Below are positions 5,777 to 19,174 of a stretch of DNA of 19,174 nucleotides, piece after piece (within the stretch, counting starts at the first letter, position 1; every line of letters begins with the position of its first letter). The stretch comes from Bdellovibrionales bacterium (lineage in GTDB: Bacteria; Bdellovibrionota; UBA1018; CAIMNF01), in NCBI GenBank assembly GCA_040380025.1, contig JBEIJY010000038.1, positions 1-19,174 on the forward strand. Direction: 5' to 3'. Both the position numbers and the translations under genes were made by a program. The notes beneath the pieces were generated by a model, which saw only the letters and a list, made by a program, of their open reading frames with translations, did no database searches and was not told where the DNA came from.

Positions 5777-6340
5777 ATGAGCGCAAAAATCGATTTGAAC
5801 CGGTTCAAGGAAGTGGTGGGTCAGCTGAAGACGACCCAGAAGCATCTGCAGTCCCTGATGAGTCGGGAGACCTTGCAAGATGCCCGTCGGTATGCCGAGA
5901 ACTCGAAGCAAGAAATTCAGAAACTCCTGAAGGGCGCGGACCTGAAGACCGTTAAGGCGCGGATCGCAAAAGAGGCGGTCGAGCTCCGCAAGCTCCAGCA
6001 GTCGATTCCGGGAGAACTCGCGCGCTTCACCAAGTTTGTCGAGGCGCAAAAGAAGGAGCTCGAGAAAATCCTGAAGAGCGTGACTGCGCTTGATGCGGTG
6101 AAAACCCCGAAGGTGACCCCGGTGAAGGAAGCTCCCGCAAAAGGAGGCTCTGCCAAGCCACCGGTCGCGAAAAAAAGCACGCCCCGGAAGCCTGCTGTGA
6201 TCAAGACCAAGGCGAAGGCGGTCAAGGCGAAAAGCGCTCCGGCAGGTGCGTCGGCTGCGAAGGCGGCCGAGAATCTGGCCGAGAATTCGGTTGAGACGAA
6301 TTCTGGCGATGAATCGCAAGACTCCCTGTTCAAATCTTGA
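5777..6340 (+). CDS. Hypothetical protein: helical/coiled-coil N-terminal half plus Lys/Ala/Pro-rich histone-H1-like tail
   Basis: Strong SD TAAGGAG. Residues about 1-105 are charged and amphipathic-helical, about 109-164 are K/A/P-rich, and the end is short and acidic. Confidence 0.8.
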   Translation: MSAKIDLNRFKEVVGQLKTTQKHLQSLMSRETLQDARRYAENSKQEIQKLLKGADLKTVKARIAKEAVELRKLQQSIPGELARFTKFVEAQKKELEKILKSVTALDAVKTPKVTPVKEAPAKGGSAKPPVAKKSTPRKPAVIKTKAKAVKAKSAPAGASAAKAAENLAENSVETNSGDESQDSLFKS

Positions 6341-6370: not shown

Positions 6371-6973
6371 ATGGCAAAGAAAAAAACCACGACCAGACCA
6401 AAAGCGAAGAAAAAACCCGCTGTAAAGAAGACCGCTGTAAAAAAGACGGCAGTGAAGAAAACAGCGATTAAAAAAACCACCCCGAAAATCAGGGCGACCT
6501 CGTTCTTGAATCCGGGCGTTCCGGCGCCAAAGTTCCATGCGGTCGACGAAAACGGCTCCCCCGTGCGCTTGGAGTCGCTCCGAGGGCGTACGATCGTGCT
6601 TTATTTCTATCCGAAGGACGACACCCCCGGATGCACCAAGGAGGCCTGCGATTTTCGGGATTCCTTCGCTCGTCTTCAGGCCGAGGGCATCGTGGTGCTT
6701 GGAGTGAGTCGCGATTCGCCCGAGTCGCATGCACGCTTTCGGAGCAAGTTCGACCTTCCGTTTTCGCTCGTGTCGGATGCCGACGGCAAGGTCTGCGAGG
6801 CGTTCGGGGTCTGGAAAGAAAAAAGCATGTACGGCCGGAAGTACATGGGTATCGAGCGTTCGACGTTTGTGATCGATCCCGAGCTCCGGATTGCCAAAGT
6901 GTACCCCAAGGTTTCGGTAACCGGCCATGTCGACGAGGTTCTTTCAGACATTCGTGCCATGAGGGAGTCTTGA
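6371..6973 (+). CDS. bcp: Bcp/PrxQ peroxiredoxin (CxxxxC) with Lys-rich N-terminal extension
   Basis: VLYFYPKDDTPGCTKEACDFRD active site, GVSRD, FSLVSD and GIERSTFVID; SD GAAGAGGAG upstream of ATG 6371. Confidence 0.93.
   Translation: MAKKKTTTRPKAKKKPAVKKTAVKKTAVKKTAIKKTTPKIRATSFLNPGVPAPKFHAVDENGSPVRLESLRGRTIVLYFYPKDDTPGCTKEACDFRDSFARLQAEGIVVLGVSRDSPESHARFRSKFDLPFSLVSDADGKVCEAFGVWKEKSMYGRKYMGIERSTFVIDPELRIAKVYPKVSVTGHVDEVLSDIRAMRES
6410..6484 (+). repeat. Five degenerate 15-bp coding tandem units (KKPAV KKTAV KKTAV KKTAI KKTTP)
   Basis: Units read aaaaaacccgctgta / aagaagaccgctgta / aaaaagacggcagtg / aagaaaacagcgatt / aaaaaaaccaccccg, with many synonymous differences. Confidence 0.85.
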
Positions 6974-12265: not shown

Positions 12266-12285
12266 GGACCCATCGGGTTGCCCTA
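12263..12285. terminator. Hairpin spanning two convergent stop codons; possible bidirectional terminator
   Basis: TAGGG-ACCC-ATC-GGGT-TG-CCCTA. No U-tract on either side. Confidence 0.3.
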
Positions 12286-13254
12286 AGGGCACGTCGCCCC
12301 ATCGCAGATCCGCTTCAACACGGCTCCTCCGCGGTTGTCTTTTGCGATCCCGATCAGGATTCTCCCGCGTCCCGTAGGAAGAGCCGCCACGGGCGGAAAA
12401 AACCGGTTCCACTCGCCCGGGAGCGTCCGCGAGAGCAAAAGGGTTCCATCACTCGTGCATTCTTTTTTTCGTGAGCATTCGATGTCTTCCGGCCCGCTCA
12501 GAAACCACGCCGTTTCGACTTTCTCGCTCAGGGTCTCGGTCGTGCCGTCGGGTTTCATCGAAAGGTAGCTCTCGATGCTTCCTGCCGGAACAAAGGCCTC
12601 GATCAGGGTCTCGCTCGATGGCAAAGCGGCGAGGTTCACGCCACCCGAACGGAACTCCAGGCTCGCGGGATTGTTGTTCCGTGCGGGTTTTGCCGGGTCA
12701 GAGAACAAAAGCCGCTTGAAGGTGGTGATCTTTTTTTGCTCTTCTCCGGCCGGAAAGAGCTCGAAAAACACCAAGATCGCAAAGCCGTTGAAGCGCCGAT
12801 CCTGAGAAAGTGCATTGTAGCGGGCGATATATGCGGCTTTTGCGGCCGGTGTGATCGTGTTCAGGTTGAACCCGAACGGAGCGATGTCGCCGGTGTGATT
12901 CGGCGAAGCGAAGCTCCCGCTCGGGGCGGTCAGTGTGCCGCTTGCGACATCCGTGCGGGTGGGGTTCCCCTCGCAGGTGGGTGGAGCACCGAGCCCGACT
13001 CCCGGATCAAGACAATGATACATGCGGTAATTGAGCGCCCGTCCGCCGCCGTACAGGTCGCTGATCACCGGAGTCGCCTGGATCGAGAACGGCGTGAAAT
13101 CCCCGGTCGCCGGATCAAAGCTCACCTCGGGAGAATCCAGGAGCAAGGCGATCACGCGAAGGCCCTGCAGGATCGAATATTTCGGAAGCGTCTCGGGGCC
13201 GCAGGCCGGGAGAGAAGTAAGAAGAAACACTAGCAAAACAAGGCGAGTTCGCAT
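12283..13254 (-). CDS. Putative outer-membrane lipoprotein associated with the TonB-dependent receptor
   Basis: Signal MRTRLVLLVFLLTS-LPA|C with lipobox Cys18; starts 1 bp after the receptor stop; several paired cysteines. Confidence 0.85.
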   Translation of the reverse strand: MRTRLVLLVFLLTSLPACGPETLPKYSILQGLRVIALLLDSPEVSFDPATGDFTPFSIQATPVISDLYGGGRALNYRMYHCLDPGVGLGAPPTCEGNPTRTDVASGTLTAPSGSFASPNHTGDIAPFGFNLNTITPAAKAAYIARYNALSQDRRFNGFAILVFFELFPAGEEQKKITTFKRLLFSDPAKPARNNNPASLEFRSGGVNLAALPSSETLIEAFVPAGSIESYLSMKPDGTTETLSEKVETAWFLSGPEDIECSRKKECTSDGTLLLSRTLPGEWNRFFPPVAALPTGRGRILIGIAKDNRGGAVLKRICDGATCP

Positions 13255-13255
13255 C

Positions 13256-15475
13256 TTAGAATTCTCCCTTCAACCCGAAAGTCGGGAGGACCGGAAACCC
13301 CCGGACCGGCTCCGAGCGGGTGTAGTCGTACGAATACTGAAGTCCCTCGACATTCTGGCGATTCAAAACGTTCAAGATGTCGAGATAGAGCGAGAGTGTC
13401 CACGAATCATAGACCCAGCGTTTGTCGATCCTGAGGTCGAGCATCGCAAAGGGATCAAGCCGCTCGTTGAAGAGCGCCCCGCGGATCGGAATGAACACAT
13501 CATTGTCGAGATCTCCCGCCGCACTTTGGGGAACGGTTTCGAGCGGTCCGGTCACATACCGGAAGCGGGTCGAGATCCGCCAGTTCCGCTTCAGGTTCAC
13601 CCCCGCGATCAGTGTCAAAAAGTGAGTCTGGTCGTACTGATACAAGTACTCGGGACGACGCGGATCCCAGCGGGTCGAGCGCGAAAGGGTGTAAATCGCC
13701 CAGAAATTCCAGTTGTCGAGGACGGTCTGAAAGCTGTTCTCCCAGCCGAGTGCGCGTCCCGAGCCCTCGTTCACGAAAAGCCGGGAGGTGTCCGGAATGA
13801 TGAGATTCTGGAACCATCGACCAAAAAAACCGGAGTACGCCTCCGAGCCCCGTCCGATCTCGTTCGAAAGATCCTTCTCGGCTCCGAGCTTCAACTGCCA
13901 GACCTGCGATCCCTTCACGGCAGGGTTTCCGTAGCTTGCCGACGACTGCCTCTCTTCGGGGGGCTGACCGTAAAGGCCGCCTGCCGCGACCAGGGTCAGA
14001 TCGGGAGTCGCCGCATATCGGGTTCCGAGGCGCGGACCGATTTGCAGATCATCGACCGGGCCGAAGTAATCGATCCGGAGTCCGGGAAAAAACGTCCATT
14101 TCGAGTCCGTCGCCGGCCGAAAAACAGGATTGAAGTAGAACCCGTACAAATCCGAGAAAACTCCGCGCAGATCGGCCGTCCTGGTTTCGCCCGAGCTCAG
14201 GGGATTGATGACCCCTCCGTCGCTCGTGATCACCGGAATTCGAAACGACACATCCGCAAGCGTGAACCGGTGATCCATGCCGTAGGCCAAGGTCAGTTGG
14301 TCATTCACGCGGGTCCGGTTTTCTGCGCGCACGGTTGAGGTCAGGGTTCTCAGATTGAAGAACGAGTCGCCGATGTCGGTATTGATGAAGTCGCGGCCCA
14401 CGGCCATGCTGAGTTTGGTTTTGGAATGATTCGAATGGGTCCACTCGAACTGCGGAATGAACCTGAAAAACCCGATCTCATTCGAGAAGTTCCCGCGCAA
14501 GGAAGGATCATTCCCGAGCGCGTTCGCGGCGACGAATTCGAGCGAGTCGCGCGATCCGATCGAGACGAGCTTGAAGTTCAGGTTCGGTGAGAGGGGACGC
14601 TGGTAGATCAGGCCGAGGTCGCCATACGTCGGCGCAACGGTGAGCGCAAAATTCTCGTTTCCCTTCAACACGGCTTTCAGCACCTGCCCGACATAGCTGA
14701 TTCGGGCGCCCGCCGCGAGCTGTCCTCGTTCGCCGACCGGAGTCTCGATCGCGGCGCCCGAGTTGAAGGTGTCGACAAAGGCCGAGCCCTTGAACTGCCG
14801 GCTCGAAAGATTCTTGGAATTCAGATTCAGAACTCCCCCGAGGGCACGGCTGTAATTGCTCTGGTAGCCGGCCGAGAGAAAATCAAAACTTCCCGTGAGC
14901 TCCGGATTGAACACCGAGCTGAGTCCTCCGAAATGGAAAATCAGCGGAATTTCGTGCCCGTCGATTGTGTATCGCGTGTCTTGCGGGGCTGATCCCTGAA
15001 TGATCACCTGGGAGGTGAAGCCCTGGCTTCGGTTCACGCCGGGCAGATTCTGGATCGCGCGGACCGGGTCGGCACCGGCACCGGGAAGGCTCTCGGCCGT
15101 TTTTTTCGAAATCGTCTTTTGAACGGAATCGCGATCGCCGCTCGCCTGAATTGTGGTTTCGAACGCCGTTGTGGCATCCGGCTCAAGAAGGATCCGCTCG
15201 GGAACTCCGGCGGGAGCCAGCGTGATGATTTTTTCGAATCGCTTGTAGCCGGGAGCGTTCACGATGAGCGTGGCCTCGCCATCCGGCACGGGCTCGAACC
15301 GGAACCGTCCCTCGTCATCGGTCGTGGTCCGTTGGCGCGAAGGCAGGAGTACGACATTCACTTGTGGTACCGGATCGCGAGTGCCGCGAATGCGAACCAC
15401 TCCCTCGACCGGGGTCTCTGCCAAGGCGGGGGCCGGGGCCAACGACGCGAACAGGATCGCGATCAATGAAATCAC
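13256..15475 (-). CDS. TonB-dependent receptor with N-terminal carboxypeptidase-regulatory-like domain
   Basis: Signal peptide (APALA|E), VEGVVR...TTDDEGRFRF...APGY domain, plug (IQNLPGV, IDGHEIP, YSRALGGVL), barrel end LYLDILNVLNR and terminal Phe (GLKGEF). GTG start overlaps the tonB stop. Confidence 0.93.
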   Translation of the reverse strand: MISLIAILFASLAPAPALAETPVEGVVRIRGTRDPVPQVNVVLLPSRQRTTTDDEGRFRFEPVPDGEATLIVNAPGYKRFEKIITLAPAGVPERILLEPDATTAFETTIQASGDRDSVQKTISKKTAESLPGAGADPVRAIQNLPGVNRSQGFTSQVIIQGSAPQDTRYTIDGHEIPLIFHFGGLSSVFNPELTGSFDFLSAGYQSNYSRALGGVLNLNSKNLSSRQFKGSAFVDTFNSGAAIETPVGERGQLAAGARISYVGQVLKAVLKGNENFALTVAPTYGDLGLIYQRPLSPNLNFKLVSIGSRDSLEFVAANALGNDPSLRGNFSNEIGFFRFIPQFEWTHSNHSKTKLSMAVGRDFINTDIGDSFFNLRTLTSTVRAENRTRVNDQLTLAYGMDHRFTLADVSFRIPVITSDGGVINPLSSGETRTADLRGVFSDLYGFYFNPVFRPATDSKWTFFPGLRIDYFGPVDDLQIGPRLGTRYAATPDLTLVAAGGLYGQPPEERQSSASYGNPAVKGSQVWQLKLGAEKDLSNEIGRGSEAYSGFFGRWFQNLIIPDTSRLFVNEGSGRALGWENSFQTVLDNWNFWAIYTLSRSTRWDPRRPEYLYQYDQTHFLTLIAGVNLKRNWRISTRFRYVTGPLETVPQSAAGDLDNDVFIPIRGALFNERLDPFAMLDLRIDKRWVYDSWTLSLYLDILNVLNRQNVEGLQYSYDYTRSEPVRGFPVLPTFGLKGEF

Positions 15476-16050
15476 TCTAATATAAAACGATAGGTATAGC
15501 GGATGCGGATTGCAACGGGTTTGTCGTTGATGCGCGCAGGACGGAACCGGAACTTCCGCACGGCAAAAATTGCCGCATCGGTGAGCTCGGGTGCGGGAGA
15601 ATCAAGAACCTTCGCCGAAGAAACCTCGCCGTTCGAAGAAAGCACGAGCTCGAAAAGCACGGGGCCTTGGATTCCTCGGGAGCGGGCTTCCGGTGGATAG
15701 GGGATCCGGACTTCGTTCAAAAGCACGGGGAGCTCCGAGACCTCATAATCCTCAAAGCTCTCGCCTGCGCCGGTGATCAATGCACCCGAGCCTCCGGTGG
15801 TTGCGCCTGTTGCAGAAGACTGCGCCGGGTCAGAAGACGTGCTCGTGGTCGTTTTCAGAGACGGTTTGATCGGAGTTTTGACGGCCGTTTGCCGAGCCTT
15901 CGAGGCCGGCGTTCCCGGGCTCGAGCGGATTCCCTGCACCTCGACCAATTCTACCGGAATCTCCTCGTGTGGCCCGAATGCGAAGAGCAAAAGAAGAAGC
16001 AGGCCCAGAGTTCCAAGGTGAATCAGCAATGATTGAAGTGTGGCCCGCAT
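15472..16050 (-). CDS. tonB: Energy transducer TonB-family protein
   Basis: N-terminal TM with SLLIH (SxxxH motif), low-complexity T/S/P linker, and TonB_C domain YPPEAR..GIQGPV...FRFRPA. Confidence 0.9.
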   Translation of the reverse strand: MRATLQSLLIHLGTLGLLLLLLFAFGPHEEIPVELVEVQGIRSSPGTPASKARQTAVKTPIKPSLKTTTSTSSDPAQSSATGATTGGSGALITGAGESFEDYEVSELPVLLNEVRIPYPPEARSRGIQGPVLFELVLSSNGEVSSAKVLDSPAPELTDAAIFAVRKFRFRPARINDKPVAIRIRYTYRFILE

Positions 16051-17166: not shown

Positions 17167-17278
17167 GGATTCAATCATGCTTGCAAAATCCTGACACGAT
17201 TCCGGTCGATATCGAATTGACTAATTTTTCCTGATCCGGTCTAGTCCTCCGAAACCATCACACCGAAAAAGGGAAGCA

Positions 17279-18838
17279 ATGAAATTGATTCGATTGTCGG
17301 CCTGTCTTCTGGTTCTCTCCCAACTCCCCCAAATCGCCCTAGCGAACGTCTGCGATGATCTCTTGCATCTGCAAGCCGCCGGCCCCCGCGTGTATTTTCT
17401 CGACACGAATGTGCTGCTCTCGGAGCCGGATGCATTCCTCGGGTTCAAGCGCGGCGAGACTGTGGTCATCCCCGAGCAGGTGATCCGCGAGATCGAAGCA
17501 AAAAAGACCGATTCCGACCTTGGCGTCAAGGCGCGCGAGTTCTTTCGCCTGCTCGATGAGCACACCGGTGCCGGCGCCCTGAAGAATGGCGTGATTCTGC
17601 CGAATGGTTCCAAACTCGAGTTCGCGACGGTTTCTCCCGTGACCGAGGCAAGCCCGGCCGCGATTCAGGGGCTCGATCTCACTCCGGCCGGAAACCCCGA
17701 CAATCGGATTCTTGCCGCGATGATCGAGTACCGCGAAAAAAATCCCGCCGCTGATTTCATGTTCCTCTCGCACGACAACGCGTTTCGCATTCTGGCCCGG
17801 GTGAACGAGTTCCCGGTGGGACGCTTCAGCGAGCAGTACCGGACGGTGGTGCCGGTCTCGAATGACGAGCTCATTTATTCGGGCCTGAAAAAGCACATCC
17901 TGTCTGAGCAGGAGCTGGACGAGTTCCGCACCCTCGGCACCATGGAAGTTTCGGATCCTTCGCTGTTTTATGACAACCAGTTCGTGATCCTGAAGGATCA
18001 GGAGTTTACACTGCTTGATCCTTACAAGCCTGCGACTCCCGACAACCAAAGATTGGTCAGCGAAGCCATCGTGGCGCGGTACCGGAGTGCGGACCAGACC
18101 CTGAATCACTTGAAGGTCAAAAAGACCACGAAGATCAAAACCATTTTGCCAAAAAATCTGGAACAGCGCCTGGCGCTCGACCTGTTGATGGATCCTTCGG
18201 TCACGATGGTGTCGATTTTCGGGAAGGCCGGTTCGGGCAAAACCCTCCTCACCATGGCGGCGGCACTCGAGCAACTCGACAAAAAAGTGTACGAGAAGAT
18301 TTATTATGCCAAGGCGCATGAGCTCGTGGGCGGCAAAGACAAGCTCGGGTTCCTGAAAGGCTCGTATGACGAGAAAACCGGGCCGTATCATGAGTCTTTT
18401 GTCGACAACCTCGAGGTGATCTTCGGCCTGAACCAGGTTGCGGCCCTGAAGAAGAGACTCAATAACTCGCCCAATGACGTGCTTCGCGAGTTCGGTATGG
18501 AGCCGATCAAGATCCTGTATTCCCGCGGCCGAAGCATCACCAAATCCTTCATCATCATCGATGAGGCGCAGAACCTGACGGCGCAGGAGCTGAAGACCCT
18601 CGGAACCCGGGTGGGCGAGGGCTCGAAGATCGTCCTGATGGGCGATCTGGGCCAGATCGACCTCGCCGGAACGCGCGGGCCGCACATGAGCGCGTTCTTG
18701 AAGGCCGTGAATTCGGAGGCTTTCAAGCGAAGCGAGATCTCGGGGCATATTCAGCTGATGGAAGGGCTTCGCTCGAAGACGACGGATCTGTTCAATGATA
18801 TTTTTGAAGAGATCGACCGCGGGGGCGCCCGCAAATAA
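17279..18838 (+). CDS. PIN-PhoH (PhoH2-like) RNase/ATPase with apparent N-terminal Sec signal peptide
   Basis: PIN motifs FLDTNVLL, VIREIE, PDNRIL and LSHD. PhoH motifs KNLEQ, Walker A GKAGSGKT, LGFLKG, RGRSI, Walker B IIDEAQN and MGDLGQID. A 37-aa N-terminal extension has n/h/c regions. Confidence 0.92.
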   Translation: MKLIRLSACLLVLSQLPQIALANVCDDLLHLQAAGPRVYFLDTNVLLSEPDAFLGFKRGETVVIPEQVIREIEAKKTDSDLGVKAREFFRLLDEHTGAGALKNGVILPNGSKLEFATVSPVTEASPAAIQGLDLTPAGNPDNRILAAMIEYREKNPAADFMFLSHDNAFRILARVNEFPVGRFSEQYRTVVPVSNDELIYSGLKKHILSEQELDEFRTLGTMEVSDPSLFYDNQFVILKDQEFTLLDPYKPATPDNQRLVSEAIVARYRSADQTLNHLKVKKTTKIKTILPKNLEQRLALDLLMDPSVTMVSIFGKAGSGKTLLTMAAALEQLDKKVYEKIYYAKAHELVGGKDKLGFLKGSYDEKTGPYHESFVDNLEVIFGLNQVAALKKRLNNSPNDVLREFGMEPIKILYSRGRSITKSFIIIDEAQNLTAQELKTLGTRVGEGSKIVLMGDLGQIDLAGTRGPHMSAFLKAVNSEAFKRSEISGHIQLMEGLRSKTTDLFNDIFEEIDRGGARK

Positions 18839-18901: not shown

Positions 18902-19174
18902 TCACCCGAGAAGCACCGTGTTGTGATACCGGACGTAAAGAGCCAGGTGATCCATGAGCCGATCCTTCAGCTTGGTCGTGCACCAGGTTTTTCGGAAGAT
19001 CCGGTTGATGTTCGCACGTAGCATCTCGCAGGGGTGGTTGAGCGAGAAGAGCGGATCAAAGCCGCCTCTCTTGATCTCCCCTTGCCCCGTGTTCGAGCCC
19101 CGGCGGCCCGGGTGCCGAATGTGCTTTGCCTGAGGTAGGTGTTTTTTCACAAACATTGGATAATGCGGATTCTG
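18902..19174 (-). CDS. C-terminal fragment of an IS1-like transposase (partial; frame open to the window edge)
   Basis: Reads QNPHYPMFVKKH...DPLFSLNHPCEMLRANINRIFRKTWCTTK...HLALYVRYHN, which aligns without gaps to the IS1-family pattern ERxNxxLRxxxxRLxRKTxCFSK...YYN as I recall it. Confidence 0.65.
   Translation of the reverse strand, partial: QNPHYPMFVKKHLPQAKHIRHPGRRGSNTGQGEIKRGGFDPLFSLNHPCEMLRANINRIFRKTWCTTKLKDRLMDHLALYVRYHNTVLLG

Follow-up and report, generated by a model that had tools for sequence, protein, structure and literature searches.

In mycobacteria PhoH2 is described as a sequence-specific RNase that is also an ATP-dependent helicase, for which a hexamer model has been put forward and which has PhoAT as its partner (PMC7390352). 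Prey RNA is broken down in the course of Bdellovibrio predation, with the Sec pathway as the presumed source of the enzymes (PMC2797640). As far as the accessible parts of the literature go, predators export many hydrolases, with the routes into the prey cytoplasm being unresolved (PMC2797640, PMC12428579, PMC13689555, PMC12622784, PMC12419801, PMC11495043, bioRxiv 2022.06.13.496000), and reviews speak of limited evidence on the roles of predator enzymes and secretion systems (PMC12428579). How Bdellovibrio-type predators reach and dismantle the prey cytoplasm is the question addressed by the protein described here, P0001.

P0001 resembles PhoH2 of Mycobacterium smegmatis, M. tuberculosis and Corynebacterium glutamicum in the order of its PIN and PhoH domains, the four acidic PIN residues, the Q motif, Walker A/B, RGRS and a late arginine. 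It differs from these proteins by a leader, a lone-cysteine tag, a cysteine-free body, a long separate branch and a plain copy alongside. Unlike the mycobacterial PhoAT-PhoH2 toxin-antitoxin pair, no co-transcribed phoAT-like gene was seen upstream of its gene, and against the NCBIfam equivalog NF053827 (PhoH2) P0001, the one protein scored, reached 160.2 bits and thus stayed under the 680 cut-off. The Sec leader is shared with the exported nucleases Bd1244 and Bd1934 and the proteases of Bdellovibrio bacteriovorus, proposed to digest prey contents (PMC2797640, PMC12622784); those enzymes are cofactor-free hydrolases, whereas P0001 is predicted to be ATP-dependent. As in bacterial lipoproteins (Lgt/LspA/Lnt) the signal peptide is followed by a conserved cysteine and a short tether, but the cysteine of the tagged family lies several residues past the signal peptidase I (SPase I) site and is in many cases preceded by Asp, Pro, Arg or Asn. 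A further comparison is offered by the trafficking motifs at the N-termini of polymorphic toxins and effectors, such as MIX/FIX for T6SS and XVIPCD for T4SS. As with these, one short module is found on unrelated, patchily distributed cargo; unlike these, the tag sits about five residues behind a Sec leader and no immunity gene was seen beside the P0001 gene. Neither a post-signal cysteine tag nor an exported PhoH2 was found described in the literature searched, i.e. main texts outside most subscription journals; the accessible text of PMC2797640 and PMC12622784 does not mention such a tag, and the word cysteine does not occur in that of the latter. This PIN-PhoH protein, a presumably exported variant of a known RNase/helicase family, is real, well conserved and apparently undescribed, and it offers a useful entry to the wider tag.

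Gene, start site and catalytic domains

The window, i.e. the whole stretch of DNA analysed (19,174 nucleotides), is the entire contig C38 of the host genome G000 (2.35 Mb, 98% complete). The tagged PIN-PhoH (PhoH2-like) gene at 17279..18838 on the forward strand runs from ATG 17279 to TAA 18838, encodes the 519 aa product P0001 and apparently stands alone. In agreement with the initial annotation, which had noted a purine-rich run before this ATG and no Shine-Dalgarno sequence before an in-frame GTG, the Shine-Dalgarno-like run AAAAGGGAAG (17267..17276, forward strand) 5' of the ATG gave a duplex energy with the anti-Shine-Dalgarno motif of -5.5 kcal/mol, compared to -1.7 kcal/mol before GTG 17390, which encodes V38. 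The translated ORF likewise agrees with the reading of LDTNVLL from residue 41. Within the 112-bp upstream gap, where a small antitoxin gene had been reported absent, we also found no fully contained forward-strand ORF of at least 20 aa; two TTG ORFs (35 and 38 aa) upstream of the gene overlap the end of the preceding gene. Neither a sigma-70 promoter nor a convincing terminator was seen near the P0001 gene, and its neighbourhood in G000 is not conserved in G002 and G013, which also carry a tagged PIN-PhoH gene.

The PIN RNase domain spans residues 40-180 (17396..17818, forward strand; Pfam PF13638, PIN_4, E 1.5e-18) and contains D42, E71, D141 and D166, followed by the PhoH ATPase/helicase domain at residues 289-468 (18143..18682, forward strand; PF02562, E 1.4e-36) with Q296, Walker A at 315-322, RGRS at 416-419 and D428/E429 of Walker B; R498 lies just past the domain end. 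Both domains are modelled confidently by AlphaFold, with pLDDT below 50 for residues 17-32, and the closest solved structure, by sequence (E 6e-22) as well as by fold, is PDB 3B85, which represents the PhoH domain of PhoH2 from C. glutamicum. The labels RRB1/RRB2 were assigned by alignment position, with motif names taken in part from PMC7390352. D42/E71/D141/D166, Q296, Walker A, R416/R418, D428/E429, R444 and R498 are invariant in all 12 close tagged members, and the same catalytic positions are kept in nearly all of the 153 plain PIN-PhoH proteins; the four PIN acids show no exception among these 153 or among 10 distant tagged proteins. Among 20 positions compared in 10 distant tagged proteins the only changes were one N293S, one R418E and R/K at 345. 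The residue table thus bears out the earlier statement that the PIN acidic residues and Walker A/B are intact, and both the RNase and the ATPase site look functional. Since the residues of both activities have been kept over a divergence to about 30% identity, ATP use is likely still under selection. Position 345, an RNA contact, is K in 12/12 close tagged members versus R in 133/153 plain proteins, and one P that is invariant elsewhere is replaced by K in the close tagged clade; K345 and K360, both clade-specific, lie near the presumed RNA-binding loop. Substrate handling may therefore differ.

Several other ORFs of the window deserve mention. An ORF at 6371-6973(+), presumably a peroxiredoxin (Bcp)-like protein, carries a Lys/Ala/Thr-rich, histone-like N-terminal extension, and the adjoining 187-aa ORF at 5777-6340(+), without a Pfam match, has a similar basic tail. 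At the contig end, the 84-aa ORF at 18902-19156(-) is without a Pfam match too and resembles the remnant of a transposase C-terminus. A TonB C-terminal protein, a TonB-dependent receptor and a lipoprotein-like ORF form one unit at 12283-16050(-).

Leader, lone cysteine and the tagged subfamily

Signal peptides were called by our own heuristic (n-, h- and c-region and A-x-A site) in place of SignalP. For P0001 it predicts a Sec/SPase I signal peptide of residues 1-22 (17279..17344, forward strand) with cleavage after ALA22. None of 2000 shuffled N-termini of P0001 scored as high as the native one, and a signal peptide was called for 20/23 extended homologues versus 0/242 plain proteins, which upholds the Sec-type leader of the initial annotation. 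A-x-A-type cleavage sites are present in most tagged members; most also have a basic n-region, with the hydrophobic stretch not followed by a cluster of basic residues, favouring an outward C-terminus. The pattern [LVI][ASTVI][GAS]C, which we take as the lipobox, occurs in none of the 23 tagged PIN-PhoH proteins.

Behind the predicted site follows the tag NVCDDLL (residues 23-29; 17345..17365, forward strand), whose C25, three residues behind the site, is the sole cysteine of the predicted mature protein. C25 alone is invariant within the tag among the 12 close full-length tagged proteins. Of the post-cleavage CxxLL segment proposed earlier, the cysteine was thus confirmed; the strict C-x-x-L-L was found in 3/12. 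CDDLL of P0001 matches the consensus of its own genome, and the nearest homologues read CDDAA, CSDLS and CDQAS. By alignment, the tag is best described as a cysteine plus a short hydrophobic turn, not as a fixed CxxLL. Furthermore, the PIN-PhoH body is free of cysteine in 20 of the 22 full-length tagged proteins versus 33 of 239 plain ones (plain mean 3.0 Cys), and in 12/12 close tagged members versus 2/28 plain copies of the host lineage; kin are not independent in these counts, though the pattern spans down to 30% identity. Such a loss would fit transit across a compartment that is oxidising, where the tag cysteine would be the only free thiol.

All 23 extended PIN-PhoH proteins found carry the leader and the cysteine, namely P0001, 11 proteins at 52-67% identity, two more of the close clade and nine distant ones at 27-32%. 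Among the best 120 homologue matches, the leader and an aligned cysteine are present in each of the 11 full-length proteins (52-67% identity), and two further clade proteins are fragments lacking the N-terminus. Of the other 106, 103 start no more than 19 residues from the DTN motif; another two are extended by a stretch that is not hydrophobic, and the pattern failed to match the remaining one. When 50% cluster representatives were searched with a profile that includes the leader and hence favours leader-bearing matches, the two close-clade and nine distant leader-plus-cysteine proteins and one that is probably truncated were added; as judged by eye, 11 of the 148 new representatives have a signal-like N-terminus, and in all 11 a cysteine lies between it and the PIN domain. 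Conservation of the extension, which the initial annotation had left to be checked in a clade, therefore holds for the whole subfamily (23/23), down to about 30% identity. Of the findings named there as speaking against export, none that sequence analysis could address was encountered.

In a 59-row tree 16 of the 17 tagged rows fall on one side of a branch with 96% support, and in this quick search, with long branches in the tree, a single tagged clade was not rejected (p-AU 0.78). An origin of the tagged copy as a duplicate of the host lineage's plain copy was rejected under LG+G4 (p-AU 0.0007), with a long-branch caveat. With respect to this rejection and to the conservation of the subfamily, the tagged form is old and probably no recent duplicate of the housekeeping gene. 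An unextended PIN-PhoH paralogue, whose presence had been suggested as a check, is encoded by the same genome on contig C22. A PIN-PhoH match was found in 60 of 61 related genomes and the tagged form, among the 61 relatives searched, in G000, G002 and G013 only, i.e. 3/17 genomes of the genus; none of 27 lower-scoring PIN-PhoH loci read in the relatives has a leader and a cysteine. Given the near-universal plain copy, the tagged gene is a patchy accessory gene. A locus search of named genomes, the second scan of which covered 2 of 64 parts, returned no tagged member. The clade member P0009, one of the close homologues, is labelled Bdellovibrionales at NCBI, in keeping with the Bdellovibrio-like organism assumed earlier.

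The cysteine tag across genome and order

The tag scan was run on the 2102 genes of G000 predicted by our own gene caller. C-x-x-L-[LM] at +2 to +14 after the cleavage site occurs in 16 of 389 non-lipoprotein exported proteins, compared to 3, 0, 0, 0, 0, 1 and 0 in deeper control windows and 3/1638 among other proteins. The supposition that the cysteine segment is common to other exported proteins is thereby substantiated far above the chance controls. A looser scan yielded 46 candidates, from which 19 were kept by eye, P0001 included, with the consensus C-[SND]-[DE]-L-L; P0001 hence has its tag in common with about 18 other proteins of G000. The tagged cargo comprises five paralogues (two with an FGE-type domain), an oligopeptidase A, a 2H phosphoesterase and a protein matching a phage 'DNA transfer protein'. 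A methyltransferase-like assignment is weak (best Pfam E 3e-4, below the cut-off), as are the leads to ADP-ribosyltransferase (Atlas 0.89-0.91) and HD domains, and one protein that looks Fic-like by eye gave a single-sequence model of pLDDT 41. The gene at C2:94478 may be noted as a kinase-like candidate. For 13 of the 19 tagged proteins (15/21 with two extra proteins) there was no Pfam match at E 0.01.

The tag also occurs on homologues of other cargo in further families of the order. As read by eye in relatives, the tag is present on 12/13 methyltransferase-like and 4/4 phosphoesterase-like homologues and on 6/29 M3 peptidases, and for the FGE-domain family 5/10 are tagged, three have a leader without cysteine and two are cut off. 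In 400-kb samples of low power the broad motif was found in 7/103 exported proteins of G019, 1/86 of G060 and 0/76 of the same-genus G002, and in 1/50 and 0/54 of two proteobacterial controls. From these counts we conclude that the tag, as a sequence pattern, is order-wide, loose and uneven. An HMM of 18 tags from G000, searched over 61 genomes, recovered its own 18 members and elsewhere only unconvincing matches (best E 0.007); it misses the tagged PhoH2 of G002 and G013 and is therefore too narrow to show absence. Upstream of the 19 tagged genes no shared promoter word was found beyond the 5-mer CGTTA (6/19, corrected p 0.008).

The five tagged paralogues of about 1000 aa (C12:5522-15036, C2:147932-151231 and C35:5328-8603 of G000; L031-L033) share a C-x(4-5)-D-C-S motif, conserved among them, and bear an FGE-type domain at the C-terminus; this family occurs in 7/61 genomes, with five copies in G048. 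The tagged protein at G000:C26:26191-27819(-) (L038) has, by eye, an ADP-ribosyltransferase-like R-S-E pattern followed by a weak HD domain, and an Atlas similarity of 0.89-0.91 to NarE/scabin-like clusters. The M3 oligopeptidases of the order (L223-L252) were sorted by eye into four forms, namely cytoplasmic, lipoprotein, plain signal peptide and signal peptide plus cysteine tag.

Proposed delivery into prey and rival explanations

We lean, at somewhat better than even confidence, towards P0001 being an extra, ATP-driven RNase that is delivered into prey and whose cysteine peptide serves as a sorting or tethering handle. Judged from its sequence, P0001 is very probably exported and, given export, would quite probably act on prey RNA with prey ATP, either after translocation or in a breached prey. 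The separate plain PIN-PhoH copy likely does the in-house job, and the predatory lifestyle of the host is assumed from its relatives. Sequence and conservation place the start of translation at ATG 17279. Sec export and cleavage after residue 22 would follow, during which the enzyme would stay unfolded and harmless in the producer, so that no antitoxin would be needed. The lone-cysteine peptide at the new N-terminus could then act as the handle, most simply by a disulfide bond with some carrier or delivery component, a bond that the reducing cytoplasm would undo. Exit might proceed via type II secretion or a pilus-type system, routes which are present in the genome, with secretins at 5 loci and 8 ATPases of the T2SS/pilus type above cut-off in G000. 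By homology with mycobacterial PhoH2 the enzyme would finally assemble into a ring, unwind RNA and cleave it in an ATP-driven manner, and prey gene expression would be halted and nucleotides freed. More tentatively, the findings may reflect a two-step route in which, after Sec export, the single-cysteine N-terminal handle loads unrelated cytoplasm-type enzymes (besides the ATP-driven RNase ring, domains of phosphoesterase, methyltransferase-like and ADP-ribosyltransferase-like type) onto a machine that would carry them into the cytoplasm of living prey, with release by reduction. If true, such a route would be undescribed and categorically new, the tag would list each predator's effector arsenal from sequence, picking effectors out of many hypothetical proteins in predator genomes, and with this PIN-PhoH subfamily a PhoH2 would for the first time have become a weapon between cells. 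An exported enzyme whose ATPase site is complete makes a precise probe of delivery, since it should work only where ATP is. With a five-residue tag and an enzyme of known assay the question can be put to the test in B. bacteriovorus, where reporters of secretion are available (PMC12622784).

Every sequence fact supporting delivery also agrees with a secreted or surface-tethered digestive enzyme that is not translocated, acts, at the junction or in the bdelloplast, on the RNA and ATP that escape from breached prey and uses its cysteine peptide as an anchor or as a link to other enzymes by disulfide or unusual acylation. The tagged peptidase and phosphoesterases are typical of digestion, and a dedicated injection system was not found in the 98% complete G000 with one marker family each for the T6SS sheath (PF05943) and VirB4 (PF03135). 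It counts against delivery that oligopeptidase A, as part of the cargo, can do without a cytoplasmic cofactor, that the tag is rare in G002 (0/76) and G060 (1/86), and that a translocon partner for the tag was not identified in G000. According to a review, the junction of B. exovorus gives access to the cytoplasm of the prey after disruption of its inner membrane (PMC12428579). We nevertheless consider such digestion rather unlikely, as ATP in lysing prey should be short-lived and as the methyltransferase-like and ADP-ribosyltransferase-like cargo, weak calls that count little for delivery either, would better suit living prey. Moreover, the M3 peptidase already has lipoprotein and plain signal-peptide forms in the order, and a separate tag on it suggests a separate destination.

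A protein that never leaves the cell, being held by an uncleaved inner-membrane anchor or started at GTG 17390 and serving as a PhoH2 for RNA turnover or phage defence, would have both ATP and RNA at hand in the producer cytoplasm, and the signal-peptide call is heuristic. This is improbable in view of the A-x-A sites in most members, the basic n-region, the loss of body cysteines, the GTG without Shine-Dalgarno sequence and a leader kept to about 30% identity. Quite improbable, too, is a role in the own periplasm, be it against incoming phage RNA or in the salvage of imported RNA, with a local supply of ATP or with an ATPase site that serves assembly only. The several exported AAA+ ATPases of G000 could be a hint of an envelope compartment that contains ATP; in the general view the periplasm has none, the hydrolysis residues are fully conserved and the distribution is patchy. 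That an ordinary PhoH2 was mis-assembled or extended by chance, as one might fear for a metagenome-assembled genome, is hardly credible and was ruled out by 22 other proteins of the same architecture from several collections, besides the 0/2000 shuffles.

The tag does not extend to all exported ATPases, as three exported AAA+ proteins of G000, a ClpB-like protein with M41 peptidase, a double AAA protein and a MoxR-like one, are without it. The tag is consequently not required for every exported ATPase, and their predicted signal peptides show that the host puts leaders on other ATP-dependent enzymes and that the tag would not be the only route. The ClpB-like protein at G000:C40:2582-6814(-) (L330; 1410 aa) combines a signal peptide, three Walker A motifs and ClpB-type AAA+ and M41 peptidase domains, and thus appears to be an exported FtsH/Clp-like protease; in G002 and G013 its homologues (L131, L132) are found at a distance of about 3.5 kb from the tagged PhoH2. 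At G000:C1:94217-97917(+) (L331) two adjoining signal-peptide AAA+ genes encode proteins of 876 aa (two AAA modules) and 346 aa (MoxR-like), and the pair converges on a cysteine-tagged gene at 97929-98900.
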